Source of the DNA: a virus
DNA length: 64,000 nt
Direction: 5' to 3' (one strand)
IMG/VR virus record: IMGVR_UViG_3300045988_115271
Shown one piece after another: positions 43,589 through 63,965 of this stretch (the first letter of the stretch is position 1; each line of letters opens with the position of its first letter). The translations under genes and the position numbers were made by a program. Under the pieces are notes generated by a model. It did not search any database and was not told the DNA's origin. It saw only the letters and a program-made list of their open reading frames with translations.

Positions 43589-46500
43589 CTACTTGTAGCT
43601 AACATCATCGTCCCCTTCCGAATCAGGAGTAGCGCCGATGAAGAACATCATTGACTTGTTGTTCGTCTGCTGCCACCAATTATAGGCGCGCGCTACGTCT
43701 TCCGGCGTCTTGATATTATACCATTGTTTGATAAACGTCTGTTTGGCGAGTTGCCTAAATAACTTAGACTCTCCCTTGTATGTACCGGATGTTACTTTAT
43801 CAAGTGAATAATTCCTAAGATCGGTAAGATCCTTCAGTTTTCGCCCCATAACAAACGGATCGTTAATGATATCTACCACGTTAAGCTCCATAATAAACGG
43901 CATCTGTGAAGCTATTTCGTTTATGGTTCTGAATCCGACATAGGATCCAAATTGAGTAAGCCAACTTTCTTCGTTTTCATCATCATCACGCCATCCGGCA
44001 AGAAGCATAGATACGGCCTGCATGATAAGGAACGTGCCGGCATAGACACTGAGACGTTTGAGATTGGTTTTTTCTACCTCATTCATATTGTCTTTATTTT
44101 CATTCCAGGCATCTATGATGTTTTTCATACCAGACTCGGAAGTCAGGCTAAATGTTTTGGCTATCATATTCTTTAACGTAATTGACAACCCTTCCTCTTC
44201 TTGCATTGTCTGGAAATTGAAGCCACGTCTTTTCCACAGACGTTGAGCCGACAGCACCAACCATCCTCGGTGGGCGGTCATGAACCTGGCTATCCAGTTG
44301 CGCGATGCGGCAGTTCGGTTTTCTTCATTCAAAGATCCGTTGCATATCTGCGACAAGCTACGAACTTGATTTCTGGTTATAGCCATCTGGGTTTCTACTT
44401 CCTCAACAGTAACACCCGATCCTGGCTTTACAACCACCTTCCCATCCACGACGTCTACCATACTCCATAAAGTACGATCTTTTAATGCGTTCCATTCTCT
44501 TTTTATGGTACTCTGTTCTTTATTGCGTTCTTTTTCCATCTTGAAATCTTGGAACGTGTAGAACCGGCCTTTGTAATAACGAACATTGTCCATAGTAGCA
44601 ATCATAACCTGCGGATCAAGAGGGTAGTTCAGGATTTCCATAAAAGCATACATAGGTGAACGCATTAAGGTCCTGGCCACTCTATTATATCCGGCACCAT
44701 ACATACGATTTCGGATATTGAATATCCCCATTCTCTCACCTATGACATATAATTTGCTTTTCCTATCTATGTCTCCGGTTTCTGCTATACAAGATGGAGC
44801 AAGGCGTGAAAATTCAGCCGATGCGTATTTAAGGGAGTCTTTGCTTATATACTGTCCTACGGCAGATTCCATGATGAGGTTGATATGACCTGTAAGGGCG
44901 CCGGTAGCTGCCACAAACGGGGACAGCGCCAGGTTCATAACCGACATAAATCTTTCAACGGCCATCATTATCCTGGTAAGGTCTACTGTGTACCCACCGA
45001 TGTTCACCGTAAGTTTTTTGGTGTTCATCCTAATGCCATAATAATGGTCATTGAAGAAGTCCCTGAACATCTGATATGCTTGGGTTGCTTCAGCTTTCTT
45101 ACCGCCTTCAAATTGCTTATTCAGTAACATCTGCTCCAGTCCTTGGGCAAGCTCTATAGATTTCTGCTTTTCGTTGTATAATGATGATTGCATCATAAGC
45201 ATCGAATAAGAGTAACCAAAATCATGAGATACGTCATCTTGGTTCTCTAATTCATATATGTAGTATTTAGGTATGGACCGAACCCTATCTTCCGGATCAT
45301 ATACTTCCCCTTGTCTGGTTTTACCGTATAGAGAATCGTCTACTCTGTCCAGGCAGAGATCTGATACAAAATTACGAACCGTATTTTTGAAGTTAATACC
45401 CAATCCTTCTACACGTTCTATGTCTTGTTTTGATATCTGTGGAATAGCATACAGGTTCGGGCTCTGCTCTTTGTATAGATCAAGGGATTGTCTTTTTATT
45501 TCCTTGAGTTTTTGAATCATATTCCACTGCTCTACGTTTTTAGTAGCGACCTCATTACCGTCAGCATCATACTTGATACCAAAGTCATTAAAATACGATT
45601 CATCACGATACAGGCTTTTCTTGGGCATGCGATGACCATACCCATGATCTTTTACATAATCAGGATTACGGCCGCTATTTTCGGCTTCAGATTCAGCCAC
45701 CCATGCCCTTGCAGGGTCAAAAGACAGGTATGATATGTCCATACCGTAATCTTGGGTGGATGTTCCGTTCTGTACGTCTTTAACCATCTGCGCCACATCT
45801 ATCTCACCTCGACCAATTTTGTCGATCATAGCCGCATATCCGGTAGGTGCCATGCGTTTATAGTATGAAAAGACCTGGCTCCTGGCAAATTCATTAACGA
45901 CCGCATTAGCTTCTTCTATACCTGATTCTCTTGTGTTATTTAAAAACAAGCTGGCCATCTTAGCATTGACGGCATTCCTAAAATCTCTACCGTCTAATTC
46001 TTTGCTTATTCCAAGCTTTTCTGACAAGTAGTTGGTTTCAGATACGGTAAACAGATGCCGGTTATCAGCAGCTTTGAATAACTTATCCCTTAAAGCCTGA
46101 ATCCTTTTTGCTTTCTTTGCCGTAGTATGACGTTGCACAAACTTCCATTCCACTTCCTTGGAGTCAGCAAGAGCATTTAAATAAGACTGATTTACTTCGT
46201 TTTCAGCCTTACTGCTTTTAGTAAGGTACTTATCAATATCTTCAAGACCCACCATCTTAGCATAATCTATCAAAATAGCGTAATCGGCTTCAATAGCTTC
46301 AGATGCGGCCCTAAAAGCATCTCTTTCAGATGAGGTAAATGTCGCTTCATTAATTTCTCCGATATCAGCCACATCTCGGTTGTTTCCGATTATTTCCTTG
46401 ATAATGGCCTTATTTTTTTCTATATCTTTTACAATCGAATCCACGTCAGTTGCATCTCTATCACTTGTCGTAGAACTAATGATGTCTTGTGCCATTTTAA

Positions 46501-49500
46501 GATACGAAGCCTTGTTATTTGATTCGGTACGCGCCGATTGTTCTGATTCTACGTCATTCCAAAACCGATCGTTGAATGACAGGTGACCCCCCAACATAAG
46601 TGTCTTCAGCGCAGCTTCTCCTCCAGATTCACGCTGAATAGTTCTCAATTTTTGCAGAAATGATTCTGATACGGCATTAGTGACATTATTTGATTCTTTT
46701 CTCCAAACTTCATTTATGGCTTGTATTTCTTTAGCCATCTTGAGTTGATCACCGGTTTTATCTACTCTCCTGGTTCCTACGTATATGTATTCTGAAGCTG
46801 CTTCCTTACGTTGTTTACGAAGCAGTCCTTCTTCTTCGTAGTTACTACTCTTATAGTAAGCAACCTCATCAAAATTACCACCGCTATCAATAAAAGGCTG
46901 CCTCAATATCCGCTTCTGCCGAGAAAGAGCATTAAGGTATTCTTTGGTTGTTTGAGAAACCGGATGCCCTAATTCTTCTTCGGCCTTTTTGTATATGGAT
47001 TCCATTCTTGTGGCATAACTTTCACTAAATTCCAGTTCTGAATTTTCAGCATCCCACTTCTCCATCTGTTCTGTATAAATCTTTTCCTGCTCGATGGTAA
47101 AAATATCGGTATTAACCCTATCGGACGACGGTTTAAATTTAGCGTTCTCAGTAACCGTATTTCCGTCCTTGTCAACTACTTCTCTTTTAAATACGTAATT
47201 ACGGTTATTGTCAACCACATCATTGATTTCTTCTTCTGATATCTCTATGTTCATGGCGGTCGCAAACGCTCGCATCTGCGCCAGCTTCTTATTACGATCG
47301 TATTTAGCCATATCAAGAGCACTACGAAGATAATTAGAAGTTTTTCCGTCTACTTTCTGAAGCAGTTTTTCAAATTCAGATTTGTTAAAACCATGCTTTT
47401 TCGCATATGCCAGGAAGTCGGATATGGCGGGCTGGGCATTCACCATCGCATTGTAATTGTCTTTGGCAATCATAGCTCCAAGAGCGTTATTGAACGGGCT
47501 GGAGGAATGTTCTAATATACCAAACCACCTACTTATCCAGGACACATCATGTTGAACCTTATCAAAGAACTCTTTTACTCTCTTTACCTTATCTGCCGGC
47601 ACATGAAGTTCGTTCATTAACTTATCAAGCAACGTACTTTCATCAAGATCTTGTACTGATTTAATATCAGACTGAATACCGTTGATGTCGGCAATGACGG
47701 TATTGATCCTATTTGTATAATCCTGCTTTTCACGCTCATCAAATTCGGTACTTCTGTTACGGATATATCCTCGAAGATCGTTCATGATCGGAAGAACCTG
47801 GTTGTTGATAATATCTACGTTCTTTCGATCATTGGTATTGAAATGAAGCTTACCGTCTTTGGTATCACCATGAAGGATAGTATTTACTACGTTGCTTAAG
47901 TATCTAACCTGAGCTTCGGCTGTGGAGATCATGCTGTTCATGGCGGCCGCCATCTCATTCTTGTCTATTTCGGTCTCTACCTTATTTATCTTATCTTCTA
48001 TGGTCTTAAGCTGGGCAAGGGTCATAGACGTAGTTACAGCCCTATCAGAGCTTATCTGACGTAAGTCTCTTAACGTTTTTCTCAATGCCCGGATCTTAGA
48101 CTCAAGAAACTTGTTCTTCTTCATAGAAGAAAGGGAATATAATGTAAAATCATTATCCTTCAAAAGAGAAGTATCAAATCCTTTATCTATGTCGGTAATA
48201 GCAAGATCACGAATATTTTTAATAACGTTATTCAAATCCTGTCTTTGGGTTGATAAAGCTGATTTAAGCCAGTTTACAATTCCAGAGAGAAGCTGCCGGA
48301 CGCGCCCCAGGAAGGAGGTGGGCTCTACCGGCGCCTGTGCTGTGCCGGTCTGCATCTCCCTGGCGAGGATCTTTCCAAGAATTTCTCTCCTAACAGCATT
48401 ATCAAGTTCAGAGCCTTCATATACCTTACCGTATGTATTATAATACTGACCTGCATACTGATTCCATTCTTCAGTGCCTTCTACATCTTGCAAAACAGAT
48501 TCAACAGCATTCTGATCTCTGTACGCCTCTACGAGAAAGTGTGCTGTTTCTTCTACTAAGTCAGACAAAGTAGCATCTTCACCGACTGCTATTACGTTAT
48601 TGGCAATATCCGCCAATGCCTTAGCAGAAGGTTCGTGTCCGTATTTAGTTTGGTACTTCTCTATATAATCGGTCATGCCAACGACACTAACGCCCAGCGT
48701 TTTCAGTATCTCAACAATAGAATTTCGTTGATTACGTTCCTCTTGGCTATAATCCGATACTATCTTAGCTTTAGTATCAGCATAAAGATCATTGTCTTCT
48801 AATATAAATGAAACTACAAGCGCATCAAAGTGATCGTATTTAGCATCCAATTCATTGTATCTTCCAGACTTAAGATCGCTCTTTATCTGCTCCTTGCTAA
48901 CTCTTTCTGTTCCTCCGGTGGCGAGTCTCATAGTTACCTTACTATTATCCAATGAATTTATGGTTATCATACCCTGGTCGTTCATGGAAACATCGGAACC
49001 AAAATGATTACGGAGCTCAGTGTAGGATAAGGCTGAATTGAAAAGTCTAATTTGTCCTGTATGTCCTTCTCCTGTAATATAATAGCTTCTTGTTTCCGGA
49101 TCGAATATCTTGGATCCGGACAAAAGACCTTTCTTTATAAGGTAGTTAATTATACCGCCTTTTGTTGATAAAGAAGTAGAAGCAGAAGCGGTCATGACCG
49201 GTATAAAAGACTTGGGATTATTAAGAACATACTTTCCAGCCTTGTAAGTAATGTCTGCCACTCCATCCACGGTAGATTCTTGAACGATGCCTGATAAGAA
49301 TCCTATTCTGATATCATTCCCGCCAGAGCGAAGAGCTTCTCCGTAATCTTCAAATAATTGATTACGATCATTCATAAAAAACAAACGAGGTTCTCCAGTC
49401 TGATACGTTACACCCACAGGATTAGAATCTGTTTCTGGTAGCTCTTCTGGACTAAATATCTTAAGACCGTATTTTATAACCATATAATTAACATCATTAT

Positions 49501-50011
49501 CCTGTACCATAGATACGGGAGTGAAGTCCGAAGATATAGCATCTTGTAGATACTGCCCTGAGTCTATTCCTGGTTCTTCCGGCACGGAGATACTTGACGG
49601 AACCATAGCATCCACCAACATAATATTATCACCCAGATCTTGGCTATAAAATCCAAAGCCTGATTCTTGAATCCCATAAGGTGCATCTGATTTCGACACA
49701 AGAATAGGGTTGCTCATCTTAGAAGCCTTATCCAGCACCCTTTCTCTATAGGTCTCTGGAATAAGGCCGATGTTAGATTTTACCTTATTGTAAGCCTGTT
49801 TGTTGATAGGCACATTCCTTCTCCAGTCACCAAAAGCCTTTAAGAACTTATTAGAAAATACGGTTTTAAAAACAGTAGTAGCCCGTTCCCTATTCTCCAT
49901 AAGAGGAATAGATGCTATTTTATCAAACAACATAGACCTGTCCCCTGATCTGGTAGAGACAGAAACAACTTTATTTTTATTATCTCTTTTAATAATACAC
50001 GTTGATGTCAT
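43589..50011 (-). CDS. giant protein of unknown function (2140 aa; possibly an ejection or virion component)
   Basis: Uninterrupted 6.4-kb ORF. The sequence is largely alpha-helical and charged, with a hydrophobic segment near the C-terminus (VYAGTFLIMQAVSMLLAGW). I see no catalytic motif. The ATG at 50011 is preceded by a TAccTTTG -7 motif. Confidence 0.6.
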   Translation of the reverse strand: MTSTCIIKRDNKNKVVSVSTRSGDRSMLFDKIASIPLMENRERATTVFKTVFSNKFLKAFGDWRRNVPINKQAYNKVKSNIGLIPETYRERVLDKASKMSNPILVSKSDAPYGIQESGFGFYSQDLGDNIMLVDAMVPSSISVPEEPGIDSGQYLQDAISSDFTPVSMVQDNDVNYMVIKYGLKIFSPEELPETDSNPVGVTYQTGEPRLFFMNDRNQLFEDYGEALRSGGNDIRIGFLSGIVQESTVDGVADITYKAGKYVLNNPKSFIPVMTASASTSLSTKGGIINYLIKKGLLSGSKIFDPETRSYYITGEGHTGQIRLFNSALSYTELRNHFGSDVSMNDQGMITINSLDNSKVTMRLATGGTERVSKEQIKSDLKSGRYNELDAKYDHFDALVVSFILEDNDLYADTKAKIVSDYSQEERNQRNSIVEILKTLGVSVVGMTDYIEKYQTKYGHEPSAKALADIANNVIAVGEDATLSDLVEETAHFLVEAYRDQNAVESVLQDVEGTEEWNQYAGQYYNTYGKVYEGSELDNAVRREILGKILAREMQTGTAQAPVEPTSFLGRVRQLLSGIVNWLKSALSTQRQDLNNVIKNIRDLAITDIDKGFDTSLLKDNDFTLYSLSSMKKNKFLESKIRALRKTLRDLRQISSDRAVTTSMTLAQLKTIEDKINKVETEIDKNEMAAAMNSMISTAEAQVRYLSNVVNTILHGDTKDGKLHFNTNDRKNVDIINNQVLPIMNDLRGYIRNRSTEFDEREKQDYTNRINTVIADINGIQSDIKSVQDLDESTLLDKLMNELHVPADKVKRVKEFFDKVQHDVSWISRWFGILEHSSSPFNNALGAMIAKDNYNAMVNAQPAISDFLAYAKKHGFNKSEFEKLLQKVDGKTSNYLRSALDMAKYDRNKKLAQMRAFATAMNIEISEEEINDVVDNNRNYVFKREVVDKDGNTVTENAKFKPSSDRVNTDIFTIEQEKIYTEQMEKWDAENSELEFSESYATRMESIYKKAEEELGHPVSQTTKEYLNALSRQKRILRQPFIDSGGNFDEVAYYKSSNYEEEGLLRKQRKEAASEYIYVGTRRVDKTGDQLKMAKEIQAINEVWRKESNNVTNAVSESFLQKLRTIQRESGGEAALKTLMLGGHLSFNDRFWNDVESEQSARTESNNKASYLKMAQDIISSTTSDRDATDVDSIVKDIEKNKAIIKEIIGNNRDVADIGEINEATFTSSERDAFRAASEAIEADYAILIDYAKMVGLEDIDKYLTKSSKAENEVNQSYLNALADSKEVEWKFVQRHTTAKKAKRIQALRDKLFKAADNRHLFTVSETNYLSEKLGISKELDGRDFRNAVNAKMASLFLNNTRESGIEEANAVVNEFARSQVFSYYKRMAPTGYAAMIDKIGRGEIDVAQMVKDVQNGTSTQDYGMDISYLSFDPARAWVAESEAENSGRNPDYVKDHGYGHRMPKKSLYRDESYFNDFGIKYDADGNEVATKNVEQWNMIQKLKEIKRQSLDLYKEQSPNLYAIPQISKQDIERVEGLGINFKNTVRNFVSDLCLDRVDDSLYGKTRQGEVYDPEDRVRSIPKYYIYELENQDDVSHDFGYSYSMLMMQSSLYNEKQKSIELAQGLEQMLLNKQFEGGKKAEATQAYQMFRDFFNDHYYGIRMNTKKLTVNIGGYTVDLTRIMMAVERFMSVMNLALSPFVAATGALTGHINLIMESAVGQYISKDSLKYASAEFSRLAPSCIAETGDIDRKSKLYVIGERMGIFNIRNRMYGAGYNRVARTLMRSPMYAFMEILNYPLDPQVMIATMDNVRYYKGRFYTFQDFKMEKERNKEQSTIKREWNALKDRTLWSMVDVVDGKVVVKPGSGVTVEEVETQMAITRNQVRSLSQICNGSLNEENRTAASRNWIARFMTAHRGWLVLSAQRLWKRRGFNFQTMQEEEGLSITLKNMIAKTFSLTSESGMKNIIDAWNENKDNMNEVEKTNLKRLSVYAGTFLIMQAVSMLLAGWRDDDENEESWLTQFGSYVGFRTINEIASQMPFIMELNVVDIINDPFVMGRKLKDLTDLRNYSLDKVTSGTYKGESKLFRQLAKQTFIKQWYNIKTPEDVARAYNWWQQTNNKSMMFFIGATPDSEGDDDVSYK

Positions 50012-50153: not shown

Positions 50154-50477
50154 TTATGCATTGTATTTGTACCCATTTCTATGAATAAACCTTCCTGATT
50201 CGAACCTTTCCACATCATCCGGTCCAATAGGTCCGCAGTCTTCCCTCCTTGCCTCATACCACAGCCCAGGCTTACGAAGTCGGCAGGTTATGACGTATTT
50301 AAAACAGTTGTGAGTAAAATGGAATACGGAGCCTACTGGGAAATACCTGGTAGTTTGAAACACTATTCTTTTTCGTTTAGTATCAAACACTATATCTCCT
50401 ACTACCTTAGTTACGTAATAGCTTCTGCCATTTAACGTTTCATCTGTTTGTGGTATCCAATAATAACCTCTTGCCAT
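50154..50477 (-). CDS. hypothetical protein (107 aa)
   Basis: ORF in the minus-strand block. Confidence 0.4.
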   Translation of the reverse strand: MARGYYWIPQTDETLNGRSYYVTKVVGDIVFDTKRKRIVFQTTRYFPVGSVFHFTHNCFKYVITCRLRKPGLWYEARREDCGPIGPDDVERFESGRFIHRNGYKYNA

Positions 50478-50506
50478 GCCACAAATATATAAAAAAGTCG
50501 GATAAC

Positions 50507-50827
50507 TTACGTACCCGACTCTATTATTTGTTTAAACAGACCAATTCCGTCTATTATAATATGACCGCTTCGCATACGACCATTATTAGGATTATAAAGA
50601 AAATTAAAACCACTTTCTTTTTCTTGTCTTTCAAAAGAACTGATATCCTTTCCTCTACGAGCTCTTCCAAAAGCCTTCTTGAACAACTTTCCTCTGAAGG
50701 TCTTGACAAGGTTCTTGGTAGCGTTATTACCGGCTCTTATCGTTACTTTCCTTGCCTGGTCTTCTGAGACAAAACTGCTTCGGAAAATATACGATGCTGC
50801 TGCTTGTATATCTTGTTTAGTAATCAT
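50507..50827 (-). CDS. hypothetical basic protein (106 aa)
   Basis: ORF in the minus-strand block. Confidence 0.4.
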   Translation of the reverse strand: MITKQDIQAAASYIFRSSFVSEDQARKVTIRAGNNATKNLVKTFRGKLFKKAFGRARRGKDISSFERQEKESGFNFLYNPNNGRMRSGHIIIDGIGLFKQIIESGT

Positions 50828-51180
50828 ATGCCAAACATTTCTTTCAGAATACCGATCTCTATTCCATATATCAGTTTCGTTTCATCTTTATCATATACGT
50901 CAAAAAAGGATTCACTTGAGTCCTTTGGATTTACGTTCAATTGAGCTATGCAATTACCAGCATAAACCTTAAGCTTATAATTATCAGAATATATATCCTG
51001 CAACATGATTTCAAATGTTTCAATTAATTGTTTAACAAGGATTGCGTTAAATGAAAAAGACTCTTTGCCATCACCCTTAAATGTAATATAATCAAAATCC
51101 TTGGTATTATCAAATTCGTACTCTACCCGACTGTCGTCCATCATATCATAAGTGATTGACTTTTTGATTTTAAACCCCAT
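50824..51180 (-). CDS. hypothetical protein (118 aa)
   Basis: ATGA overlap with the upstream ORF. Confidence 0.4.
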   Translation of the reverse strand: MGFKIKKSITYDMMDDSRVEYEFDNTKDFDYITFKGDGKESFSFNAILVKQLIETFEIMLQDIYSDNYKLKVYAGNCIAQLNVNPKDSSESFFDVYDKDETKLIYGIEIGILKEMFGI

Positions 51181-51197
51181 GTTATTTTGTTTTTTAG

Positions 51198-51503
51198 TTA
51201 ATATAGATCTTCTGAATACAATTGTTCTCTAATGGCACTCCTATCTACTACCATTTCCTGATTATTGTTTCTAACAAGTTCAGATGCCTCCTCTCTTGTT
51301 AAAAACCGATTCTTGCTTGTCAAAAATCCTTGAACACTGCGGTTTTTATGGGCTATACCGTATGCCGCAAGTTGAGATAGTATAGAGGGGTGTCTCAATC
51401 CACAGAACACGGTACCGGATGGTATATTGGTGGGCTGATAGGGACGTTTCTTGTCGTCCTGTACCCAGATGGCCGCGCATATCACGATTTCTTTATTGCA
51501 CAT
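51198..51503 (-). CDS. hypothetical protein (101 aa)
   Basis: ORF in the minus-strand block. Confidence 0.4.
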   Translation of the reverse strand: MCNKEIVICAAIWVQDDKKRPYQPTNIPSGTVFCGLRHPSILSQLAAYGIAHKNRSVQGFLTSKNRFLTREEASELVRNNNQEMVVDRSAIREQLYSEDLY

Positions 51504-51505
51504 GA

Positions 51506-55538: not shown

Positions 55539-56546
55539 TCAGACAGCAGCGTTGTTATTGCAACATCCGTTGTTACATCCGCATCCGTTATTACAGCAAC
55601 CTCCTCCGAATACCTGTCCCCAAGTATAAGCCTGGTAAGGAGAACAAGAGGGGTAGGCCGGGACGGCCGTCGGGCGTAATTGACCAACGATATTCTGGGT
55701 TTGTTGCTGAGATAATGCCGAAGCTGTCAAAGCCGCTTTTTCTTCACGAAGTTGAGCAATAGTGTTCTGCATCTCCCTCATTTCCAACTGACAGAATTTG
55801 TCGTTGATCATAACGGTTTGGGCGTCAAGTTTCGCAGACAAGATATTGAATTGGCTTGTAGCTTGCTCACGATTGTTAGCCAGACCTTGGTTGAGACCAT
55901 TCTGCAAGATATTGGTTTGTTCCAACGTGCGAAGCTGGTTATCAAAACCTTGCTGAGTAATCATTCCCTGAGTCTGGCAAGTGCTTTGATTGATCAACGA
56001 ACTCAGATTGCAGCAGCAAGAGCTGATTTGATTTCCTATTTCACAACCTTGTTGTTGAACTGCGTTGATAACAGCCTGAGAAGTCATACCTACCTGACCA
56101 GCTACTTTATCAATAGCACCCTGTACGTTGCAGATAGCGTTCTGAAGTTGAGTAGTAGAACAGTTCAAAGCAGAAGCAATCTGATCTATGGCGCTACGAT
56201 TACCTTGAATTGCCTGCATCAAAAGTTCACGACCGTAATCGTTATTCAACTGAGCCGGCAAACCATTGGCGCAACAATCACCGCCATTTCCAAAACCGTT
56301 ACCGAAGCCGCGTCCACCCCACAGCCAGAACAAAACAATTATCCAGAGCCACCAACCGTTAGCCCCACCGAAACCGTCCTGGTTGTTACGACCGTTCATC
56401 AAAGCCGCCACCAGATTCGGATCCATTTTATTACCACCTATCAAATTAGCAAACATGCCGGGAATCATTGAAAGAAGACCGTTAGTGGCTGCACCACCAC
56501 CGTTAGCCCCGGCTCCATCTAAAAGGACGATTTTATCACCACCCAT
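55539..56546 (-). CDS. Gly/Gln/Asn/Cys-rich membrane protein (about 335 aa from the Met at 56546; the ORF is open back to 56621)
   Basis: A Gly-rich N-terminus (GAGANGGGAATNG), a transmembrane segment WWLWIIVLFWLW, a long Q/N-rich helical region, and a C-terminal GGGCCNNGCGCNNGCCNNN tail. Confidence 0.45.
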   Translation of the reverse strand: MGGDKIVLLDGAGANGGGAATNGLLSMIPGMFANLIGGNKMDPNLVAALMNGRNNQDGFGGANGWWLWIIVLFWLWGGRGFGNGFGNGGDCCANGLPAQLNNDYGRELLMQAIQGNRSAIDQIASALNCSTTQLQNAICNVQGAIDKVAGQVGMTSQAVINAVQQQGCEIGNQISSCCCNLSSLINQSTCQTQGMITQQGFDNQLRTLEQTNILQNGLNQGLANNREQATSQFNILSAKLDAQTVMINDKFCQLEMREMQNTIAQLREEKAALTASALSQQQTQNIVGQLRPTAVPAYPSCSPYQAYTWGQVFGGGCCNNGCGCNNGCCNNNAAV

Positions 56547-56574
56547 AATTTTATAGTATTTAATTGTTAAACAT

Positions 56575-56591
56575 ACGTGCATGAAGCACGT
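56575..56591. promoter_or_regulatory. perfect palindrome ACGTGC-atgaa-GCACGT just upstream of the Gly-rich gene
   Basis: 6-bp stem with a 5-nt loop, seen directly. Confidence 0.35.
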
Positions 56592-56881
56592 AACAAAGAT
56601 CATGATTGCAGGGTGGAACAAGGCTGAGTTTGTTTCCGATAAAATGGAAGGATTTTCAGTAAAAACGGAAATATAATATACAACGAGTAGTTTTCCCCAT
56701 TTATGGGGAAAAATTGATAATCAGCAACTTTCGCTTTTCCTTTTTTGGGTAAAGCGCTGTAAATCAAAACAGGATCCGCATCACTGCGAATCCTGCCTCA
56801 ACTAATCTAAACTAAAATACCATGAAAAACTTTTCCCTACTAAAACTAAAGAACGAACAAATGTATGAAAATACATGCTTT

Positions 56882-57079
56882 TCACAAAGAATCCGTATCC
56901 TGTTCTTTGGTATGGTTAAGTACATGGGATATAGTTCTGATACTTAATCCGGTTTGATTTTGTATCAGATTATAAATATAGGATTTTGAAACTACAGTTC
57001 TTAATTGACCTAAATCATTCATAATGTTTTTATACATAAGATGAATGCTGTTGTTACGTTTGATGGTACTGATTCTCAT
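56882..57079 (-). CDS. small helix-turn-helix DNA-binding protein (65 aa)
   Basis: NQTGLSIRTISHVLNH resembles a classic HTH recognition helix (xxGhSxxThSRhLN). It is the only ORF in a 680-bp intergenic region. Confidence 0.4.
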   Translation of the reverse strand: MRISTIKRNNSIHLMYKNIMNDLGQLRTVVSKSYIYNLIQNQTGLSIRTISHVLNHTKEQDTDSL

Positions 57080-57224
57080 TTCCTACTGTTATTAGTTACG
57101 TTCGGTTCTTACTTTTTCCTTATTTCCATAATCCCTTCCTGAAACTAATATTGCAAACTTAACAAAAATAATTCATAAACAATGAAAATCTAACTTTTCT
57201 TGTATGTTATTGATATACGTGCAT

Positions 57225-57259
57225 ATATAAGAAAAGTGAGACTTTCACAAGCCTCACTT
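57225..57259 (-). terminator. hairpin terminator candidate downstream of the 752-aa gene (minus strand)
   Basis: AAGTGAG (57234..57240) pairs with CTCACTT (57253..57259) across a 12-nt loop. On the minus strand the stem is followed by TTCTTATATAT. Confidence 0.4.
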
Positions 57260-57301
57260 CCCAAATTATAACTATGAAAAAACTATATATATATACAAAA
57301 A

Positions 57302-59560
57302 TTACCTGCATTCCAATTTGTTAAGATCATCCAATTCAGACTTACTTACGGTCATGTCTTGCGTCAAGCCAGATCTGTTTTGGTATGGAGCGTAATCAGT
57401 TTCTACCGTCTTAGCCTTCTGAGTAGAATCGTATTTCACCTCCGATTCGGTTCCTGTCAGATTTTGGTAGATAGAGCCGGAACTACTCTCGCTTACTTTA
57501 GACCATATCTTATTACCTACTCTTATAAAATTATCATAAATACCTTCTGCTGTTATAACACCATCTTGCTCTACGATATTAGAACCCGATTTTTCTTTTA
57601 ACAAATACGGGTGCCTGGTGTAAAAATAGTGTTCAAAATCATTCCCAGCATACGAAGGGTCATACCTCTCCAAATAAAACAATTCTGATAAAGAAGGGTC
57701 GGTACTGGTCATGCTATAATCAAACAACATCAACCTGTCTTTTCCAGATAAAGATAATTCTATTGATTTCAAAATATCAGGATCATCAGAAATAAGACCC
57801 AAAGATGGACCAGGTTTGAAGTCAAGATACTTATAGGCATTATCATATAATTTTGTTTTATGGAGTTTGTTGTCAAGGTAAGATTGGTATAAATCGAATA
57901 AGGATAATGGGTTTTCGCTATCTTGTTTTTTGTTCATGTATCGACTATACTCCCGATCCACATCCACGTAAGGAACGTCAAGTACCGCCGGGTGTCCAAA
58001 CGCCATCCTGGTCATTATCATGTCCTCTGTGTTCTGAGAATCCATGAACGATCTGACGTATTTTTTAATGGAATCCATGAGCGTATTATTATCTACGTTC
58101 CGTACTTTCTCTTTATCCAAAACGCCGTTCTTAAAACAAGATTCAGGATATATTTTAGTAGAAAAATGAGTTAGGTTGTGCTTGGCTAATACTGTTGATA
58201 TTTGATACATCTCGTTAAGATCATCTTTGCTGATCCTTTGATATAGATTATCTCCTACCTTAAGCAATGAATGCTTCTCAAATGCTTCTACTGGGTCTAT
58301 ATTTGATTCAGAATAAACGATATTCAAATTATCCATATACTCCGGCAATAATCCAAAATAATAGTCTGTACTATCACCAAGAACATCATCTATAGAAGAT
58401 GCCAGCGTTGGAGCATAATTTACATCATTATGCCTGGCCACATAAATATCAAGATCCAGCATCAAATTATCTATCTTATTCAAAGATTCTTCTGTGCCAT
58501 CATAAGTTTTCGATGTCCCTATTATATCTATGCCAAACCACGTACAAGCCTCTTCTATATCCCATATCATGCTTCTTAAATCGGATTCGGTGTCGGCATT
58601 AGCCCTATGTAAATAAGCCGATATACGAGCTCTTAGGAACTCTATTTTGCCAGGATTGTAATAAGACAGATCTTGTAACTTAGACAAGGATCTTCTCTTG
58701 CCTTCTACCACATCATCCCCTTCTATGTTTATTACCGGAATCTTATTCGTAGATGAGAACTCATCAAACATAGATTCGGCAAATTCTTTATCAGAAACGA
58801 ATTTCTCAACCAGTTCAGGATATGAATTTCTCAACGATTCAAAAGCAGATGAAAATTCAGAAAAGTTTTTTATGCCGGCTACTGTTTTACGCATAGCATA
58901 ATAAAGCTCAGAAGGATTATATGGTACCTTTTTACCAAATTGGTTAAACACTCCCTCCTTGTAAACAATAGGACCATACTGATAGTCAATAGACATAAAA
59001 TAATTATCTTTTTCCCTATCATGTTCGTTAATAGAAGAATCTATTAACTTTCTCATGGAAGTCGAAACCTCGTTTAAAACAGAAGGATCGGATAAAATAC
59101 GACTTATTTCTGTTTCATCATACAAACCGGATCTCCTTAATTTCTGCTCATTCAGTATCAAACTGCCATCTACATAAAAATCGAAGAGAATAGCATTAGA
59201 CAATGAAGACGCATTGAAAAAATAATGAGTAGACAAAAGGAAATCCCTTACATCCTTAACATCCTGAGCCGTTAAAGGATCAGCAAAATAAGTCTGACGC
59301 TTCATATACGACAGCACGTCTTCTAAAAGAGGTTCACCATTGGGATCGGTATTAAACATCTCTCCTGGAGCCGGGTTATTCCAATGACCGTAATACGACA
59401 AAAAACCAGGAGTGTAAGCCTTAGCCCATACCTGAAGAGCCCGCTCGCTGTTTCCTAATACTTTTAAAGCACTTTCGTAAAGAACGGAAGGCTCCCCGTT
59501 AGGAGCCTTAACCCGTTTTATTTCATTTTCCTTTTTTTCTATCTGACATTTGACACCCAT
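57302..59560 (-). CDS. large protein of unknown function (752 aa)
   Basis: Uninterrupted ORF with no recognisable catalytic motif. A TAacTTTG motif sits immediately upstream, at 59568..59575 on the minus strand. Confidence 0.6.
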   Translation of the reverse strand: MGVKCQIEKKENEIKRVKAPNGEPSVLYESALKVLGNSERALQVWAKAYTPGFLSYYGHWNNPAPGEMFNTDPNGEPLLEDVLSYMKRQTYFADPLTAQDVKDVRDFLLSTHYFFNASSLSNAILFDFYVDGSLILNEQKLRRSGLYDETEISRILSDPSVLNEVSTSMRKLIDSSINEHDREKDNYFMSIDYQYGPIVYKEGVFNQFGKKVPYNPSELYYAMRKTVAGIKNFSEFSSAFESLRNSYPELVEKFVSDKEFAESMFDEFSSTNKIPVINIEGDDVVEGKRRSLSKLQDLSYYNPGKIEFLRARISAYLHRANADTESDLRSMIWDIEEACTWFGIDIIGTSKTYDGTEESLNKIDNLMLDLDIYVARHNDVNYAPTLASSIDDVLGDSTDYYFGLLPEYMDNLNIVYSESNIDPVEAFEKHSLLKVGDNLYQRISKDDLNEMYQISTVLAKHNLTHFSTKIYPESCFKNGVLDKEKVRNVDNNTLMDSIKKYVRSFMDSQNTEDMIMTRMAFGHPAVLDVPYVDVDREYSRYMNKKQDSENPLSLFDLYQSYLDNKLHKTKLYDNAYKYLDFKPGPSLGLISDDPDILKSIELSLSGKDRLMLFDYSMTSTDPSLSELFYLERYDPSYAGNDFEHYFYTRHPYLLKEKSGSNIVEQDGVITAEGIYDNFIRVGNKIWSKVSESSSGSIYQNLTGTESEVKYDSTQKAKTVETDYAPYQNRSGLTQDMTVSKSELDDLNKLECR

Positions 59561-59586: not shown

Positions 59587-60117
59587 TTATAAAACCGACT
59601 TATACAATGACGGATCCCAAATTCCTTCTATATAAATCTCCGGAAAACTCAAACTGCCATCACGAAGAGTGGTGACTTCCAAGCTGGGAATGTTGAAAAC
59701 AGTACTGGTATCACCAAACTCACCATTCAACTTAATAGCATTTCCACTATTATCAGCTTCATAATAATAATAACAATAATTTTCATTAAGACTCGGATCA
59801 TATTCGTACCAATATGTTAGATCTTGTATATGATCTTCTATGTTACCAATTTTGTTTTCACCTAATATAAAAATACCATTATTGCTATGATTATAAACCA
59901 TAGATTCATAACCACCATAATTCCAATTACTATTAAACATTATGTAACTAACATCAGAATCATGATCTTTTAATACAGGTCCTATATGTATATGAATTTT
60001 ATTAAACTGACATACATAAGGTCTTTTTCCTCCAAGCCTTTTTATATCTTCATTGGATAACTTATTATAACATCCTCCCACAAAATTATCCGCAGCATTA
60101 AAAAATCTCCTTCTCAT
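59587..60117 (-). CDS. MRRRF-family protein C (about 176 aa from the ATG at 60117)
   Basis: Begins MRRRFFNAADNFVGG, 2 nt after the stop of the 1281-aa gene. It is Tyr/Asn/Gly-rich and beta-type. Confidence 0.45.
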   Translation of the reverse strand: MRRRFFNAADNFVGGCYNKLSNEDIKRLGGKRPYVCQFNKIHIHIGPVLKDHDSDVSYIMFNSNWNYGGYESMVYNHSNNGIFILGENKIGNIEDHIQDLTYWYEYDPSLNENYCYYYYEADNSGNAIKLNGEFGDTSTVFNIPSLEVTTLRDGSLSFPEIYIEGIWDPSLYKSVL

Positions 60118-60119
60118 AC

Positions 60120-63100
60120 TCAACACTCTTTATTTAACTCATTTATCGAATCCGAATTATCAGAACCTTCTACGAGATTCTTATTTCTATCTATCTCTTC
60201 CTGGCTCATATTACTCATCATATTTTGTATTTTTCTACCAGATTGAGATAAAGAGCGGATGAATGCACTGGAACTTATCTTAACTCCAAGATCCGGTTTT
60301 ACCCTAAACGCTTCACCGGTACTGATATTATACAAATCATACACACCTGAGTTCATATAGAATTTATATATCCAGTTTCCACCAGCTTTTTTGTACCCTA
60401 ATTTGGTTAACTCGACTACACTCATACCAAATTTAATGCCATTACGACCCATTATCTTCTCCGGTATAGGTTCTACCTTAGCCGGAACAGATGTATATGC
60501 TTCATCACCGCCGTACAGGAAATAAGGGGTTGTTACCCTTGATATGTGAGTAAGCGGTTCTTCGGATATACGAGGCTCGTCTTTCGCAGCCTTAGATTCT
60601 TTCCTTGGATTGGATATCCTAATAAAAGGATCGTATGTCAAAAAGGTTAAGCCGTATTCTACTTTATAACCTGATACGCCGTTAAGATCCCTTATAGCCT
60701 TAGTCGTATGCGAGTGATTGATGGTGTCTATACCGTACCTGGACTCCATATCGGTCATAATACTATTAACCTCATCTCCCTCTACATAAACCTCTTCTCC
60801 TTCTGGGATAGAGGTTATGCCGGCAGCCCTTCTAAGTAACCATAAAGTAACTTCAGCAATGTCAGAGAACTTATCTCCGTTCTTCCTATAGTTATCTACT
60901 CTTCCTTCTTCATATCCAGGTAATTCGATATTTCCTTTAACTTCGACATTTGTTCTGGATTGTCCTTTGCCTTCTCCATCTCCCTTTTTATCGCCATCTT
61001 CCTCAGTGCGTACTGCACCGCCTTCTGCACTTCCTTCTTTTCCATCATTTAAAATATTATCTGATTCTGACTCTATAGACTCCACGACAGCATCATACTC
61101 TGGTATGCCGCTAAGGAAATCTGCTACGTTATTCAAAAACTCTATTTTTTCCTCGTTTGTCATATCAAGGCTTTCCACGGGCTCCCATATGGCAGGCAAG
61201 TTGTTTGATTTTATTGCAGTAGAAACATCTTCTATAGTTTGGTTGTCCACCGTAGGAAAAACTTTAGAAACCAAACTATTGATATCAGATTCCATTTTTT
61301 CTACTTCCTCTTTTTTGCCATATTCTTTTAGGGTATCCATGCCATTGACTCTAAGAGAATAATTCAAAGCCTTGCTTGGAACAAAATCAATATATTTCAA
61401 AAAGTTTTTCAACTCTGATATAATTTGTTCATCATATCTTGGCCCAACATAATCAACCACCACCTGATCTGTTTGAGAACGAAGCCAAGAAACGTATTCA
61501 TCTAAGGTCTTACCACCTTTCTTAGAAGGAGTGGATATTTTATCACCTACTGTTCCTTTAGGTTCTAATCCCATTTCCTCCTTAAGACTTTTAGGATTAC
61601 CTCTCTCACGAAGAAACCTCAAGTCACCTCCTACAATCTTCCTTGCTATAAAATCAAAAATATTAGCATAAAGCGGCAATCCCTCTTTTTCTGTATGAGA
61701 TTCTATTTCACTCAACATAATAGAGAAATTTTTCCTGGAGGTACGCTTCTTGCCAGGTAAAGACTGCGTAGCTTGTGCCGCAGGAGCCGGCTGAGCTAAT
61801 GGCGCCGGCTGAGTCTCCCGGACAGTCCCCTCCTCTGGCATTTCCTCTTCATAAACATCCACGTCTTCCTTAGAAGTAACGGTCTTACCCTCATCAGAGA
61901 AAGGAAGATCATCCTCTATAAGTGATTTAGGTCTGGAAGATGATTTACCAAACTGGATCCTGATCTTAGGAGCAACAAACATCTCACCTTCGAAATCTAT
62001 TCCAGATTCTACTTCAGACGTCACAATGTCTTTAACACTCCTGCTTCCATCTTCTACCCACTTAACAACATCAGGAACCGTAGATAATTTTTCTATAGCC
62101 TCACGAGCTTTTCTAAGCCCTGAAATAGGATTCAAGTACGATACTTGATACGAAGCTGGATCAAGACCCAATTTGGTTAGATACGCATTAAGATCTTGTA
62201 TATCGTCTTGACCCATCTGCAACAATTCAGAGTCACCGGATTCAAGCAGCATATCTATAAAAGAAATCCATTTCTGTCCTTCCTCTGATTCTACAGAACG
62301 TAGACTAACTGGAAAAAGGTAATTAAGACCGTTTTTACCCTTGATAACAACTACCGGAACTCTTACATTTTTGTAATTATTTCCCTTGTCATTTAATATA
62401 GAATAAGCAAATGGGAAGCCTGTGTATTTAGAGCCGTTCTTAAGCACGACTTTGCCATTTAATACATATCCGATATCAGATACTTTTTCAGCACCTTTTT
62501 CGGTAATAGGGAGATTTTCTACCTGGCCATATCCTTGACCGTTTACCTTCATGTTAAACACCGGTCTTCCGGGAAGAGTCTGGGCAACAACATGCGTGCC
62601 GACGCTGATGGTAGCCGACCGGCCGGCGTCCTTCTTCCACTTGTTAAATGCCGTTCTTCTTATTTTACTTATACCGTCTATGCCCCCTGTGTCAGCTTTT
62701 ACAACAGAAACGAATCTGTTCCCACTCATGACCTTGATAACCATATTGGACACCAGTTTATTCTCAGCAGATTCTATTCTTTTTTTATCGCCGGACTGAA
62801 CAGCATCATTGTATTCGGCAAAAAGAGACTGATTATAGGTATCATTTACATCTATTTCGAGATTAACCTTATCTCCTTTTTTCAAAGAAGATAATGCTTC
62901 CTGATCTATTTTATCTACCTCATTCTCTCCGAATCCAACACCTGTTCTGTACGGAACCAACTCATCTGAATCAAGACGCTTATAAACCAAAGAATAGGAA
63001 TTACCCACATCCTGAATAGACACATCTGTGTAAAGATTAAGAACACGAGCCGATTCTTTGTCTATAGACCATCTCGCATGATAAGGTAATTCCATTATAG

Positions 63101-63965
63101 TAGCTGTTTCTCCACCTATGTTAAGGAAATACCTTTTAGTACCATTGGCGTTCGTTTCAGAGCTTATTTGAATAGGAACCAATGATTTTATGGAAGATAT
63201 AAATTTATCGGCTCTAAGACCCGCAATTTCATACCTTTCATTGCCATCATTGGATATTCTTCTTACCATCAACGTCTCTGGATTCTGGGCGCTATCTATG
63301 TTAGCTCCAGGCGTATTATCAGATTCGTCTAATTCATTTACAAGAGAATCTATATTAGCATCATCCTCCCCAAAATTACTTAACGTAGATTCGGAAATAC
63401 GACCTTTATCAATAATCCTGTTTTGTTCGATATAAGGAAGGAGATCCGTGATGTTTCCAACCTGGCCAAGATCTTCTATGGTAAATACCGAATCGGCAAG
63501 CTTATCTTCGTCAACTTTCTCCCCTTTGTCCCGTCTGTTCATTATATCAACATACGAAGAAATAGCATCATCAAGTTCCTTCCTTTGATCTGGTTCCAAA
63601 TTGGATTTAGCCATATCAATAATAGCTTTATTATCCTCATACACAAATCTCGGACTTGTAAGCCTATCAGCCTTTTCAGATAATGATTTTATGAGATTAA
63701 CGGGACTGTCACCCAAAGACGATACATAATCATCAAAATCTTGTTTGTATTTATCATACACATCTTTTTCTCTCTCAGTAAGAAGATCGGCATTACCTGT
63801 ATATAGTTTATCAATTATAGACTGCCTTACGGCCGGAACCATAATAGGATTATCCATAGCAGCCTCATAATCTTCATCCGATACAGACTCCGTAAGCGGT
63901 GACTCTTTTATATCATCTTCTGCTTCCTTCATCCTATCTTCCCTTACTTTATCAAGAGCATGCAT
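60120..63965 (-). CDS. large protein of unknown function (at least 1281 aa; possibly N-terminally truncated by the window edge)
   Basis: The ORF stays open upstream of the Met at 63965 to the end of the window (...SEDEAWTIKAFMHALD...). It is acidic, carries a proline-rich linker (PAPLAQPAPAAQ) and has no clear catalytic motif. Confidence 0.6.
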   Translation of the reverse strand: MHALDKVREDRMKEAEDDIKESPLTESVSDEDYEAAMDNPIMVPAVRQSIIDKLYTGNADLLTEREKDVYDKYKQDFDDYVSSLGDSPVNLIKSLSEKADRLTSPRFVYEDNKAIIDMAKSNLEPDQRKELDDAISSYVDIMNRRDKGEKVDEDKLADSVFTIEDLGQVGNITDLLPYIEQNRIIDKGRISESTLSNFGEDDANIDSLVNELDESDNTPGANIDSAQNPETLMVRRISNDGNERYEIAGLRADKFISSIKSLVPIQISSETNANGTKRYFLNIGGETATIMELPYHARWSIDKESARVLNLYTDVSIQDVGNSYSLVYKRLDSDELVPYRTGVGFGENEVDKIDQEALSSLKKGDKVNLEIDVNDTYNQSLFAEYNDAVQSGDKKRIESAENKLVSNMVIKVMSGNRFVSVVKADTGGIDGISKIRRTAFNKWKKDAGRSATISVGTHVVAQTLPGRPVFNMKVNGQGYGQVENLPITEKGAEKVSDIGYVLNGKVVLKNGSKYTGFPFAYSILNDKGNNYKNVRVPVVVIKGKNGLNYLFPVSLRSVESEEGQKWISFIDMLLESGDSELLQMGQDDIQDLNAYLTKLGLDPASYQVSYLNPISGLRKAREAIEKLSTVPDVVKWVEDGSRSVKDIVTSEVESGIDFEGEMFVAPKIRIQFGKSSSRPKSLIEDDLPFSDEGKTVTSKEDVDVYEEEMPEEGTVRETQPAPLAQPAPAAQATQSLPGKKRTSRKNFSIMLSEIESHTEKEGLPLYANIFDFIARKIVGGDLRFLRERGNPKSLKEEMGLEPKGTVGDKISTPSKKGGKTLDEYVSWLRSQTDQVVVDYVGPRYDEQIISELKNFLKYIDFVPSKALNYSLRVNGMDTLKEYGKKEEVEKMESDINSLVSKVFPTVDNQTIEDVSTAIKSNNLPAIWEPVESLDMTNEEKIEFLNNVADFLSGIPEYDAVVESIESESDNILNDGKEGSAEGGAVRTEEDGDKKGDGEGKGQSRTNVEVKGNIELPGYEEGRVDNYRKNGDKFSDIAEVTLWLLRRAAGITSIPEGEEVYVEGDEVNSIMTDMESRYGIDTINHSHTTKAIRDLNGVSGYKVEYGLTFLTYDPFIRISNPRKESKAAKDEPRISEEPLTHISRVTTPYFLYGGDEAYTSVPAKVEPIPEKIMGRNGIKFGMSVVELTKLGYKKAGGNWIYKFYMNSGVYDLYNISTGEAFRVKPDLGVKISSSAFIRSLSQSGRKIQNMMSNMSQEEIDRNKNLVEGSDNSDSINELNKEC

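Follow-up and report, generated by a model that had tools for sequence, protein, structure and literature searches.

What do the three giant open reading frames (ORFs) of this window, a stretch of 64,000 nucleotides of viral DNA, encode, and is a virion RNA polymerase among their products? The initial annotation had described minus-strand ORFs of 2140, 752 and at least 1281 aa, spanning 12.4 kb or about 60% of the minus-strand block, and had proposed that they encode virion-packaged or ejected proteins, possibly with a gp47-type virion RNA polymerase among them. The ORF list bears out their coordinates (Table 1; counted from its first ATG, the third ORF lies at 60120-63965 on the minus strand), and together they occupy 12,528 nt, or 58%, of the block at 42304-64000. 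The GC skew changes sign at ~42 kb, consistent with a strand switch there. Each of the three ORFs has many conserved homologues, so they are not chance ORFs; the three giant ORFs are real. Pfam found no domain in any of them, in agreement with the earlier remark that motifs of terminase, portal or polymerase are missing, and likewise none in gp47, gp67 and gp39. Searches of the PDB by sequence, with single sequences and with profiles, matched the three proteins only to designed helical bundles (E of at least 0.017).

Genomic context places the window in the epsilon group of crAss-like phages. It matches csAssE-Sib, a published epsilon crAss-like phage whose annotation includes crass ring, muzzle and portal proteins, at 93.5% nucleotide identity over 95% of 24 kb. 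The genes run in the order muzzle, lysozyme/tail protein, 946 aa, 993 aa, 2208 aa, 752 aa and 2140 aa, an order that parallels phi17:2 gp43-gp36 and phi14:2 g071-g065. From these comparisons and the homology described below, we read the three ORFs as the epsilon-group version of the crassvirus cargo trio, with a middle protein that lacks the polymerase core, and assign this reading a probability of roughly 0.8. The ~2210-aa protein would correspond to gp47 of crAss001 and gp67 of phi14:2, the 2140-aa protein to gp49 and gp65, and the 752-aa protein, in the position of gp50 and gp66, to the non-catalytic N-terminal part of the polymerase protein.

Table 1. Coordinates of the giant genes, their domains and the neighbouring small genes in the window.
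Feature	Position	Strand	Basis
2140-aa protein, gp49 (crAss001)/gp65 (phi14:2) cargo family	43589..50011	-	ORF, PHROG, BLASTP, hhalign
All-alpha C-terminal domain of the 2140-aa protein, aa 1458-2117	43661..45640	-	hhalign, tblastn, AF2
Zincin-derived domain of the 2140-aa protein	48371..48724	-	Profile match, invariant residues
~70-aa N-terminal domain of the 2140-aa protein (MTSTC...SMLF...FGDW)	49802..50011	-	Sequence comparison
~7 kb block of small accessory genes, splitting the putative cargo trio	50154..57300	-	ORFs, csAssE-Sib annotation
752-aa protein, at the polymerase gene's position between gp67-like and gp65-like genes	57302..59560	-	ORF, sequence match
179-aa ORF between two cargo genes, with a 7-nt overlap with the stop of the upstream gene	59587..60126	-	ORF
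C-terminal 1292 aa of a ~2210-aa protein, gp47 (crAss001)/gp67 (phi14:2) cargo family	60120..64000, runs off the window	-	Open frame, hhalign

The third ORF is still open at the window edge, as first noted: no stop occurs through base 63998, and the frame measures 1281 aa from its first ATG and at least 1292 aa within the window. It is 91% identical to residues 922-2208 of csAssE-Sib WOZ57301, and its full-length homologues comprise 2208 aa (WOZ57301) and 2213 aa (P0089). By hhalign, the full-length 2208-aa family matched the gp67/gp47 family (99.5%, E 8e-23), with residues 136-523 aligned to 64-404. This conserved N-terminal domain of ~350 aa falls outside the window, and the in-window part by itself showed no significant similarity to gp47 or gp67, so the assignment of the third ORF derives from the N-terminal part beyond the window edge. 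An hmmsearch with the 2208-aa family HMM missed both gp47 and gp67; hhalign against a gp67-family alignment recovered the match. The neighbouring 179-aa ORF has no Pfam or PHROG match and shows no similarity by BLAST to its positional counterpart in csAssE-Sib.

The 2140-aa gene closes the series of large late-block genes, ahead of the strand switch at ~42.2 kb. Its position at the end of the late block, after the polymerase-position gene, is the same in phi17:2, phi14:2 and cr56_1; here ~7 kb of small genes separates it from the 752-aa gene. The protein matches PHROG 37651, 'virion structural protein' (E 9e-76), and crAss001 gp49 by BLASTP (80 and 49 bits), and tblastn with it found matches in Suoliviridae and other crassviruses. 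Its family aligned with the gp65/gp49 family at a probability of 100% (hhalign, E 3.5e-62), residues 1458-2117 pairing with phi14:2 gp65 734-1419. As judged from the alignments, this all-alpha C-terminal domain is the core common to the whole gp65/gp49 family. It contains the hydrophobic C-proximal segment recognised in the initial annotation (aa 1987-2005), which AF2 modelled as a long helix (pLDDT 75 for the C-terminal domain); by hydropathy, the helix covers 43988-44080 (aa 1978-2008) and is followed by an acidic cluster. The model of the domain has no fold match in the PDB (best E 0.6), so a membrane or conduit role for it is a guess. At the opposite end, the protein carries a ~70-aa domain in common with the 752-aa protein and phi14:2 gp66. 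Its residue Cys5 (49997-49999) is near-invariant in the family alignment, an N-terminal cysteine being present in 50 of the 54 members.

Between these ends lies a domain related to the zincin described for phi14:2 gp65 (bioRxiv 10.1101/2020.03.07.982082). The canonical zincin motif HExxH was not found in the 2140-aa protein; at the place of HEIMH in gp65 it has EETAH (48539-48553), in which the first metal-binding histidine is replaced by glutamate. Residues E487, E488, H491 and F492 are invariant in the family, with EExxHF in 54 of 54 members, and the profile match extends to 'PEEFAHFAIEA' of crAss001 gp49. Among crassvirus gp65-like proteins, 16 have HExxH and 13 have EExxH (13 of 45 homologues). 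Since crAss001 gp49 and these 13 share the replacement, EETAH is a within-family variant. Three parts make up the 2140-aa protein: a zincin-derived domain with glutamate for its first metal-binding histidine, an extended helical central region, and the all-alpha C-terminal domain, which is conserved and includes hydrophobic helices. We speculate that the protein helps to build or pass a trans-envelope ejection conduit and that it may process its partners.

The trio could instead be mainly a set of host-takeover effectors, with the zincin-derived domain an active peptidase against host proteins or the cell wall and no part in a conduit or ejection machinery. The EExxH...E residues are invariant across the 2140-aa family, and the gp65 zincin has been suggested to activate the polymerase or to digest peptidoglycan (bioRxiv 10.1101/2020.03.07.982082). 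Moreover, both the 752-aa and the 2140-aa families include members with effector domains of polyvalent proteins: relatives of the 2140-aa protein bear LPD23, a DUF6782 peptidase or a NAS-like domain, and larger relatives of the 752-aa protein carry LPD23, ART-PolyVal, Kinase-PolyVal and GNAT domains, never a polymerase core (homologues with effector or LPD domains are P0026, P0037, P0046, P0252, P0264, P0293 and P0332). Polyvalent proteins (Iyer et al. 2017, PMC5512222) are similarly large, virion-associated and modular, and the relatives found here have their LPD23, ART-PolyVal, Kinase-PolyVal, GNAT and metallopeptidase domains. The three proteins of the window, however, have no recognisable catalytic domain, and Pfam detected in them none of the several effector or LPD domains of polyvalent proteins; in this respect they are bare carriers. 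In addition, the first zinc ligand of the 2140-aa protein is replaced, and its best-conserved part is helical, partly hydrophobic and without an enzyme-like fold match. We consider an effector set of this kind unlikely.

Further support for the cargo trio comes from relatives whose virions have been analysed. Proteins gp35, gp37 and gp38 of phi4:1 and phi17:2, Cellulophaga phages (Lightbulbvirus) that Yutin 2021 (PMC7886860) assigned to the epsilon group, are direct orthologues and keep the gene order (1914, 517 and 1957 aa); they too lack a polymerase core. They differ in that identity is only 21-24%, the host is marine and the trio is contiguous save one 119-aa gene, which in phi17:2 takes the place of the ~7 kb accessory block. 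GenBank notes on phi4:1 gp35, gp37 and gp38 record them as virion proteins by 'experimental MS/MS proteomics', and this, with the homology to cargo proteins, supports the initial proposal of virion-packaged or ejected proteins; orthology at 21-24% identity suggests packaging in the virion of the present phage as well. Virions of crAss001 contain gp47, gp49 (detected by mass spectrometry) and gp50, which were attributed to the cargo zone of the capsid (PMC10172136). The trio proteins would be made late in infection, stored in the capsid beside the DNA, and would leave through the tail, either before the DNA or together with it, as the next infection starts. By analogy, they may be likened to the N4-like ejection proteins and virion RNA polymerase (vRNAP) and to the T7 and P22 ejectosomes, whose proteins are stored in the capsid and leave it before the DNA; neither sequence nor fold similarity to these was detected. 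The N4 vRNAP also bears a metallopeptidase domain.

Presence in particles, which is what mass spectrometry proves, does not amount to ejection, and the giant proteins might be fixed parts of tail or capsid, such as a tail fibre, tape measure, decoration or inner-body scaffold. The label 'structural protein' in GenBank and PHROG would fit such a role, and the long helical regions resemble scaffolds or tape measures. Neither Pfam nor PHROG gave a tail-fibre, tape-measure or capsid match, however, so that the comparison with tail-fibre and tape-measure proteins proposed at the outset yielded no ordinary structural assignment, and no PDB entry matched by sequence. All tail and capsid densities of crAss001 have been given to other proteins, with gp47, gp49 and gp50 in the unstructured cargo zone (PMC10172136); phi14:2 gp66, the relative of the middle protein, reportedly enters the host along with the DNA (bioRxiv 10.1101/2020.03.07.982082); and the enzymatic effector domains of relatives make sense only inside the host. 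A purely structural role is therefore very unlikely.

Within the cargo trio, the 752-aa protein bears on the polymerase question, the protein at its gene's position being, in other crassviruses, the one that carries the polymerase. It has the N-terminal domain of gp66 and gp50 (MxxC...FGDW...NGEP in phi14:2 gp66) and the overall fold of their non-catalytic N-terminal region. Foldseek aligned it with gp66 (PDB 6VR4; Drobysheva et al., bioRxiv 10.1101/2020.03.07.982082) over 665 columns, the only significant fold match. In sequence, the match to gp66 is confined to the N-terminal end (~70 aa; residues 5-80): hhalign against 31 gp66-like sequences was significant over the N-terminal 70 aa only, with nothing beyond the first 80 aa, and a global alignment with gp66 and gp50 was not significant (probability 0.3). 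Weak collinear pieces shared with gp66-like sequences (203-269 with 255-335 and 675-704 with 2056-2085) are suggestive only.

The catalytic elements of gp66, namely its connector, DFDID motif, bridge helix and trigger loop, reside at residues 1095-1636 (bioRxiv 10.1101/2020.03.07.982082). With an alignment that begins at gp66 residue 3, this region lies out of reach, and the 752-aa protein, one third the length of gp66, is too short for the catalytic core. Neither tblastn nor profile searches matched it to the double-psi beta-barrels, connector, bridge helix or trigger loop, and it lacks DFDID. A motif search confirmed the earlier remark that no DxDGD signature was visible, as DxDxD is absent from all three ORFs; DFD[GIVLA]D was not found in any of the six frames of the window and the whole csAssE-Sib genome, and tblastn with gp66 or gp50 gave no match in either. 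Among the best 150 representatives of the 752-aa family, none has DFDxD and none matches gp66 or gp50. Outside the window, a DKDGD in csAssE-Sib WOZ57300 (993 aa) was considered as a DxDGD site and rejected: its phi17:2 orthologue gp40 lacks DxDxD, and the sequence resembles an EF-hand loop. The suggestion of a gp47-type virion RNA polymerase among the ORFs is thus not supported by the motif searches, by tblastn or by the length of the 752-aa protein.

That the 752-aa protein is a functional virion RNA polymerase in miniature, and the trio a transcription module as in other crassviruses, is extremely improbable given the missing motif, a family alignment with no invariant acidic triad, the position of the gp66 core, a predicted structure that is mostly helical with only short strand pairs, significant sequence similarity restricted to residues 5-80, and larger family members that bear ART, kinase or GNAT domains instead. 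Babkin et al. 2024 (crAssE-Sib paper) annotate the 752-aa protein as virion RNA polymerase; on the sequence comparisons made here it should not be called a polymerase, and such an annotation is a mis-annotation. The ~700-aa module, which has no match in Pfam, would instead be a carrier, fused in relatives to ADP-ribosyltransferase, kinase or acetyltransferase payloads and serving elsewhere as the backbone of larger polyvalent proteins. Because the 752-aa protein has neither a core match nor DFDxD, we infer that the phage injects no polymerase of the gp66/gp50 kind and that its early transcription relies on host RNA polymerase. Matches to the Bacteroides sigma-A promoter consensus TTTG-N17-21-TAnnTTTG numbered 2 in the window against 2.3 expected, so the motif is not enriched and provides no positive evidence on use of the host enzyme.

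Compared with crAss001 (Bayfield et al. 2023, PMC10172136), the epsilon-group trio likewise comes after the muzzle gene and closes the late operon; its 2140-aa protein is homologous to gp49 and has the same EExxHF variant of the zincin motif, and the 2208-aa family is homologous to gp47, with the same conserved cysteines at abutting ends. In contrast, crAss001 gp50 has 2412 aa with DFDVD at residue 1483, where the protein here has 752 aa and no catalytic core, and the trio is split here by ~7 kb of accessory genes in a genome of 151 kb rather than 103 kb.

The trio proteins are poor in cysteine, and across Crassvirales conserved cysteines occur exactly at their abutting ends. The gp47-like protein has a C-terminal cysteine, the middle protein starts with MxxC and ends in cysteine, and the gp49-like protein starts with MxxC. 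In the window, the only cysteine in the available part of the third ORF is its last residue (60123-60125), and the 752-aa protein, like phi14:2 gp66, has one at each end, Cys5 (59546-59548) and Cys751 (57308-57310). We tentatively raise the possibility, which we do not favour, that the terminal cysteines are disulfide tethers or form another covalent link, joining the trio head to tail into ~5,000-6,000 residues. Other crassviruses encode a single polyprotein, and a tether would imitate it; the cargo would then exit the capsid in a fixed order, and the reducing cytoplasm would free the separate proteins. The 752-aa module would then be a general carrier link of the chain, and the polymerase just one of the various payloads it can hold. 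A search for the N-terminal cysteine domain inside fused gp67 and gp66 polyproteins gave nothing significant, a weak negative that is compatible with the tether.

Taken together, the trio is a variant of the known crassvirus cargo system, in phages that make up ~13-18% of crAss-like reads in human gut viromes (PMC7886860). Yutin 2021 (PMC7886860) found the epsilon group to lack the DxDxD giant transcription block, whereas Babkin 2024 reported a virion RNA polymerase; a trio that is present, with a non-catalytic middle gene, reconciles the two. The polymerase label on the 752-aa protein is a mis-annotation and could propagate. The pattern of terminal cysteines bears on how proteins of such size are lined up to traverse a phage tail, the cargo being unresolved in the crAss001 structure. 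More broadly, the crassvirus polymerase may be recast as one payload of a carrier module that is widespread and, in other proteins, bears ADP-ribosyltransferases, kinases and acetyltransferases.

The ORF call returned the three giant minus-strand ORFs of the initial annotation, which together span 12,528 nt, or 58% of the minus-strand block 42304-64000. Near 42 kb the GC skew changes sign, as would be expected if the coding strand switched there. The third ORF had been described as still open at the window edge; its frame indeed contains no stop up to base 63998, with 1292 codons visible, and it therefore runs beyond the window. Its full-length form measures 2208 aa in phage csAssE-Sib and 2213 aa in the homologue P0089, which by itself represents 12,228 member sequences. 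The lack of recognisable motifs was borne out, with no Pfam domain found in any of the three ORFs, and the hydrophobic C-proximal segment reported for the 2140-aa protein was located at residues 1987-2005.

Coordinates of the features discussed in the text
Feature	Position	Strand	Basis
2140-aa ORF	43589-50011	-	ORF call
752-aa ORF	57302-59560	-	ORF call
Third ORF, 1281 aa from first ATG	60120-63965	-	ORF call
Small-gene block	50154-57300	-	
298-aa ORF	51778-52674	-	
360-aa ORF	55539-56621		
Promoter-consensus match	56858-56888	-	
179-aa ORF	59587-60126	-	
Cys5, 2140-aa protein	49997-49999		
Cys5, 752-aa protein	59546-59548		
Cys751, 752-aa protein	57308-57310		
Last residue (Cys), third ORF	60123-60125		

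Window positions 40000-64000 align with csAssE-Sib (OR575929.1) at 93.5% identity across 95% of their length. This 151-kb human-gut phage, described as epsilon crAss-like (Babkin et al. 2024, PMC11054128), is annotated with a crass-type virion module of terminase, portal, MCP, ring proteins and a 2257-aa muzzle protein, past which lie a tail lysozyme, "structural proteins" of 946, 993 and 2208 aa, a 192-aa ORF, the 752-aa ORF, small genes and the 2140-aa ORF. In its record the 2140-aa orthologue is entered as two overlapping CDS, WOZ57322 and WOZ57323 (csAssE-Sib 103085-109487; locus L001 11599-18001); the ORF is single and intact in the window and in P0001, a cluster of 13,405 member sequences, and the published split is probably a frameshift or assembly error.

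The three ORFs correspond to the cargo trio of crassviruses, which comprises gp47/gp50/gp49 in crAss001 and gp67/gp66/gp65 in the Cellulophaga phage phi14:2, with gp50 and gp66 being the virion RNA polymerase (vRNAP). The evidence, drawn from sequence comparison, places the 2140-aa protein in the gp65/gp49 family. Its PHROG hit is 37651, "virion structural protein" (E 9e-76), phi17:2 gp36 and phi4:1 gp35 match it across 87% of its length, and several Crassvirales genomes (cr56_1, cr52_1, cr118_1) match its C-terminal third with their last giant gene; crAss001 gp49 aligns by BLASTP in two collinear pieces (80 and 49 bits). A profile of 32 family members matched one of 48 gp65/gp49-like proteins with 100% probability (E 3.5e-62), pairing residues 1458-2117 with phi14:2 gp65 734-1419, and a second collinear piece pairs residues 479-904 with gp65 237-689 (E 0.02). 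Within the latter lies an invariant block, LADIAN-VIA...EE-AHF-VEA, which aligns with PEEFAHFAIEA of crAss001 gp49 and occupies a position equivalent to HEIMH in phi14:2 gp65, a protein that carries a zincin-like protease domain according to its authors (bioRxiv 10.1101/2020.03.07.982082). By regular expression, 16 of 45 crassvirus gp65-like proteins contain HExxH, 13 EExxH and 16 neither; EExxHF occurs in 54/54 members of the 2140-aa family. Based on this block alignment and motif census, the domain is zincin-derived, with its first metal ligand replaced by glutamate. Relatives of the 2140-aa protein carry either LPD23 with a DUF6782 metallopeptidase or a domain of NAS-like type. Modelling of the C-terminal domain (pLDDT 75) gave an all-alpha structure, in which an acidic cluster comes after a long hydrophobic helix.

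For the third ORF, the portion inside the window shares 91% identity with csAssE-Sib WOZ57301 (residues 922-2208) and matches phi17:2 gp39 over residues 346-714. At full length, its family matches the gp67/gp47 family (99.5% probability, E 8e-23) through residues 136-523, aligned with phi14:2 gp67 64-404, a region that falls outside the window; the assignment is limited accordingly, since neither gp47 nor gp67 is matched significantly by the window part alone. Most near-identical homologues (89-94% identity; P0091-P0208) cover just 81-83% of the window fragment (60120-63998), which implies an indel-rich or variable segment inside this highly abundant protein.

Published claims on the 752-aa gene conflict. 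Babkin et al. list it as "DNA-dependent RNA polymerase" on the strength of HHpred, in which phi14:2 gp66 was hit at 95% probability (46% coverage, E 3e-3; PMC11054128), and Yutin et al. describe the epsilon group as being without the DxDxD transcription block (PMC7886860). Of the Foldseek searches that the initial annotation had proposed, the one with the C-terminal domain of the 2140-aa protein gave no PDB fold match, and that with the AlphaFold model of the 752-aa protein (pLDDT 82, largely helical) gave a sole significant PDB match, the phi14:2 virion polymerase 6VR4 (E 1.7e-5, probability 1.0, 665 columns; next best, E 0.07). The N-terminal 70 aa also match a profile of 31 gp66-like proteins (residues 5-80 against 3-69; 92.6% probability, E 4.5e-7). 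The connector, DFDID motif, bridge helix and trigger loop of gp66 reside at residues 1095-1636 (bioRxiv 10.1101/2020.03.07.982082), and a protein aligned from residue 3 cannot hold these catalytic elements. DxDxD is absent from the 752-aa protein, no DFD[GIVLA]D occurs in six frames of the window or of three loci jointly spanning the whole csAssE-Sib genome, and tblastn with gp66 and gp50 found no match in the window or that genome. Together with the protein's shortness and its largely helical model, these results speak against a polymerase function, and the virion RNA polymerase suggested initially is not supported. We conclude that the 752-aa protein occupies the polymerase gene's position and keeps non-catalytic regions only; each published claim is partly right.

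Searching 1.84 billion representative proteins with a profile gave 804 members of the 752-aa family, in which a module of ~700 aa, with no Pfam match, forms the whole protein in many members and the N- or C-terminal part of 1000-3000-aa proteins in others. None of the top 150 shows DFDxD or BLAST similarity to gp66/gp50. Large members carry LPD23, ART-PolyVal, Kinase-PolyVal and GNAT domains, hallmarks of polyvalent proteins, which are predicted to be packaged and injected (Iyer et al. 2017, PMC5512222). The module is the backbone of hundreds of such large phage proteins (e.g. P0252, P0264, P0293, P0332), and represents a hitherto undescribed polyvalent-protein carrier domain. One homologue, P0320, naturally fuses a gp39/2208-like protein to the module, in agreement with the phi14:2 preprint, which states that some phages have the trio fused as a polyprotein (bioRxiv 10.1101/2020.03.07.982082).

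The proposal that these are packaged or ejected proteins gained support from orthology. Orthologues of the three ORFs in phi4:1, gp35, gp37 and gp38, each bear the GenBank note "annotation based on experimental MS/MS proteomics analysis"; virions of crAss001 were found to contain gp47, gp49 and gp50, which were placed in an unstructured capsid cargo zone (PMC10172136), and translocation of phi14:2 gp66 into the host along with DNA has been reported (bioRxiv 10.1101/2020.03.07.982082). From these, we infer that the trio is packaged in virions of the window phage and, by analogy, ejected at infection. The proteins would be synthesised late, kept inside the capsid and then expelled at infection. 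Because no polymerase core occurs anywhere in the genome, early transcription would most likely be performed by host RNAP; the Bacteroides sigma-A promoter consensus is not enriched in the window (2 found, 2.3 expected). One of the two matches lies in a 680-nt gap upstream of the 360-aa ORF. With its zincin-derived domain and hydrophobic, conserved C-terminal domain, the 2140-aa protein would be the prime candidate to form a conduit or act in processing.

The trio is divided by ~7 kb of small genes, where phi17:2 has one 119-aa gene. This block, which in the csAssE-Sib annotation contains a 'spike protein' along with a repressor and an antirepressor, has the look of an insertion hotspot within a late operon. 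A candidate anti-defence gene within it is the 298-aa ORF, in which a Tad2-like Thoeris anti-defence domain (E 1e-11) comes after a WDGH domain (E 1.7e-36). A 179-aa ORF with a GTG start lies between the genes of 2208 and 752 aa; it has a 7-nt overlap with the upstream stop and shows no BLAST similarity to the 192-aa csAssE-Sib gene in the same place, though flanking genes are 91-95% identical; it looks like a swapped cassette.

Cysteine is very scarce in all three proteins. Within the window, the third ORF contains a single one among 1292 residues, the last; the 752-aa protein has four, including Cys5 and Cys751, and the 2140-aa protein four, including Cys5, with the middle and gp49-like proteins both starting MxxC. 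In the 752-aa family, cysteine occurs within the first 8 residues in 171/180 members and the last 8 in 176/180; in the 2140-aa family, the N-terminal count is 50/54 and the C-terminal 0/54. Chance expectation is 1-2%, given an overall frequency of only 0.12-0.22%. Among non-redundant vRNAP-containing loci of 80 IMG/VR crassvirus loci, N- and C-terminal cysteines were found in 33/33 and 32/33 split polymerases, 0/13 and 11/13 upstream gp67-like proteins, 40/42 and 1/42 downstream gp65-like proteins, and 0/21 and 20/21 fused gp67+gp66 proteins, against a background of 9/68 (13%) and 2/68 (3%) in other ORFs of these loci. The cysteines thus sit exactly at the trio's gene junctions, and fused genes lack the pair, a pattern that holds across Crassvirales and was noted at loci L009-L088, L004, L005, L006 and L002. 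The P0320 fusion junction has no cysteine, and a search of fused polyproteins for the N-terminal Cys domain gave nothing significant, which counts as a weak negative. In the model of the 752-aa protein, confidence is low at the termini, which are probably flexible, and the crAss001 virion tail has many inter-subunit disulfides (PMC10172136). The word "cysteine" is absent from that paper and the phi14:2 preprint (bioRxiv 10.1101/2020.03.07.982082), and no report of the pattern came up in a literature search. Our preferred reading is that the junction cysteines suggest a head-to-tail disulfide tether of the trio, which would mimic a polyprotein.

The three genes are those of a published phage lineage and fall in known crassvirus protein families, and a cargo trio with a polymerase-less middle member is therefore a variant of a known system; specialists would be interested in the corrected annotation of the 752-aa gene, the view of the polymerase gene as a carrier module, and the cysteine pattern at the junctions.
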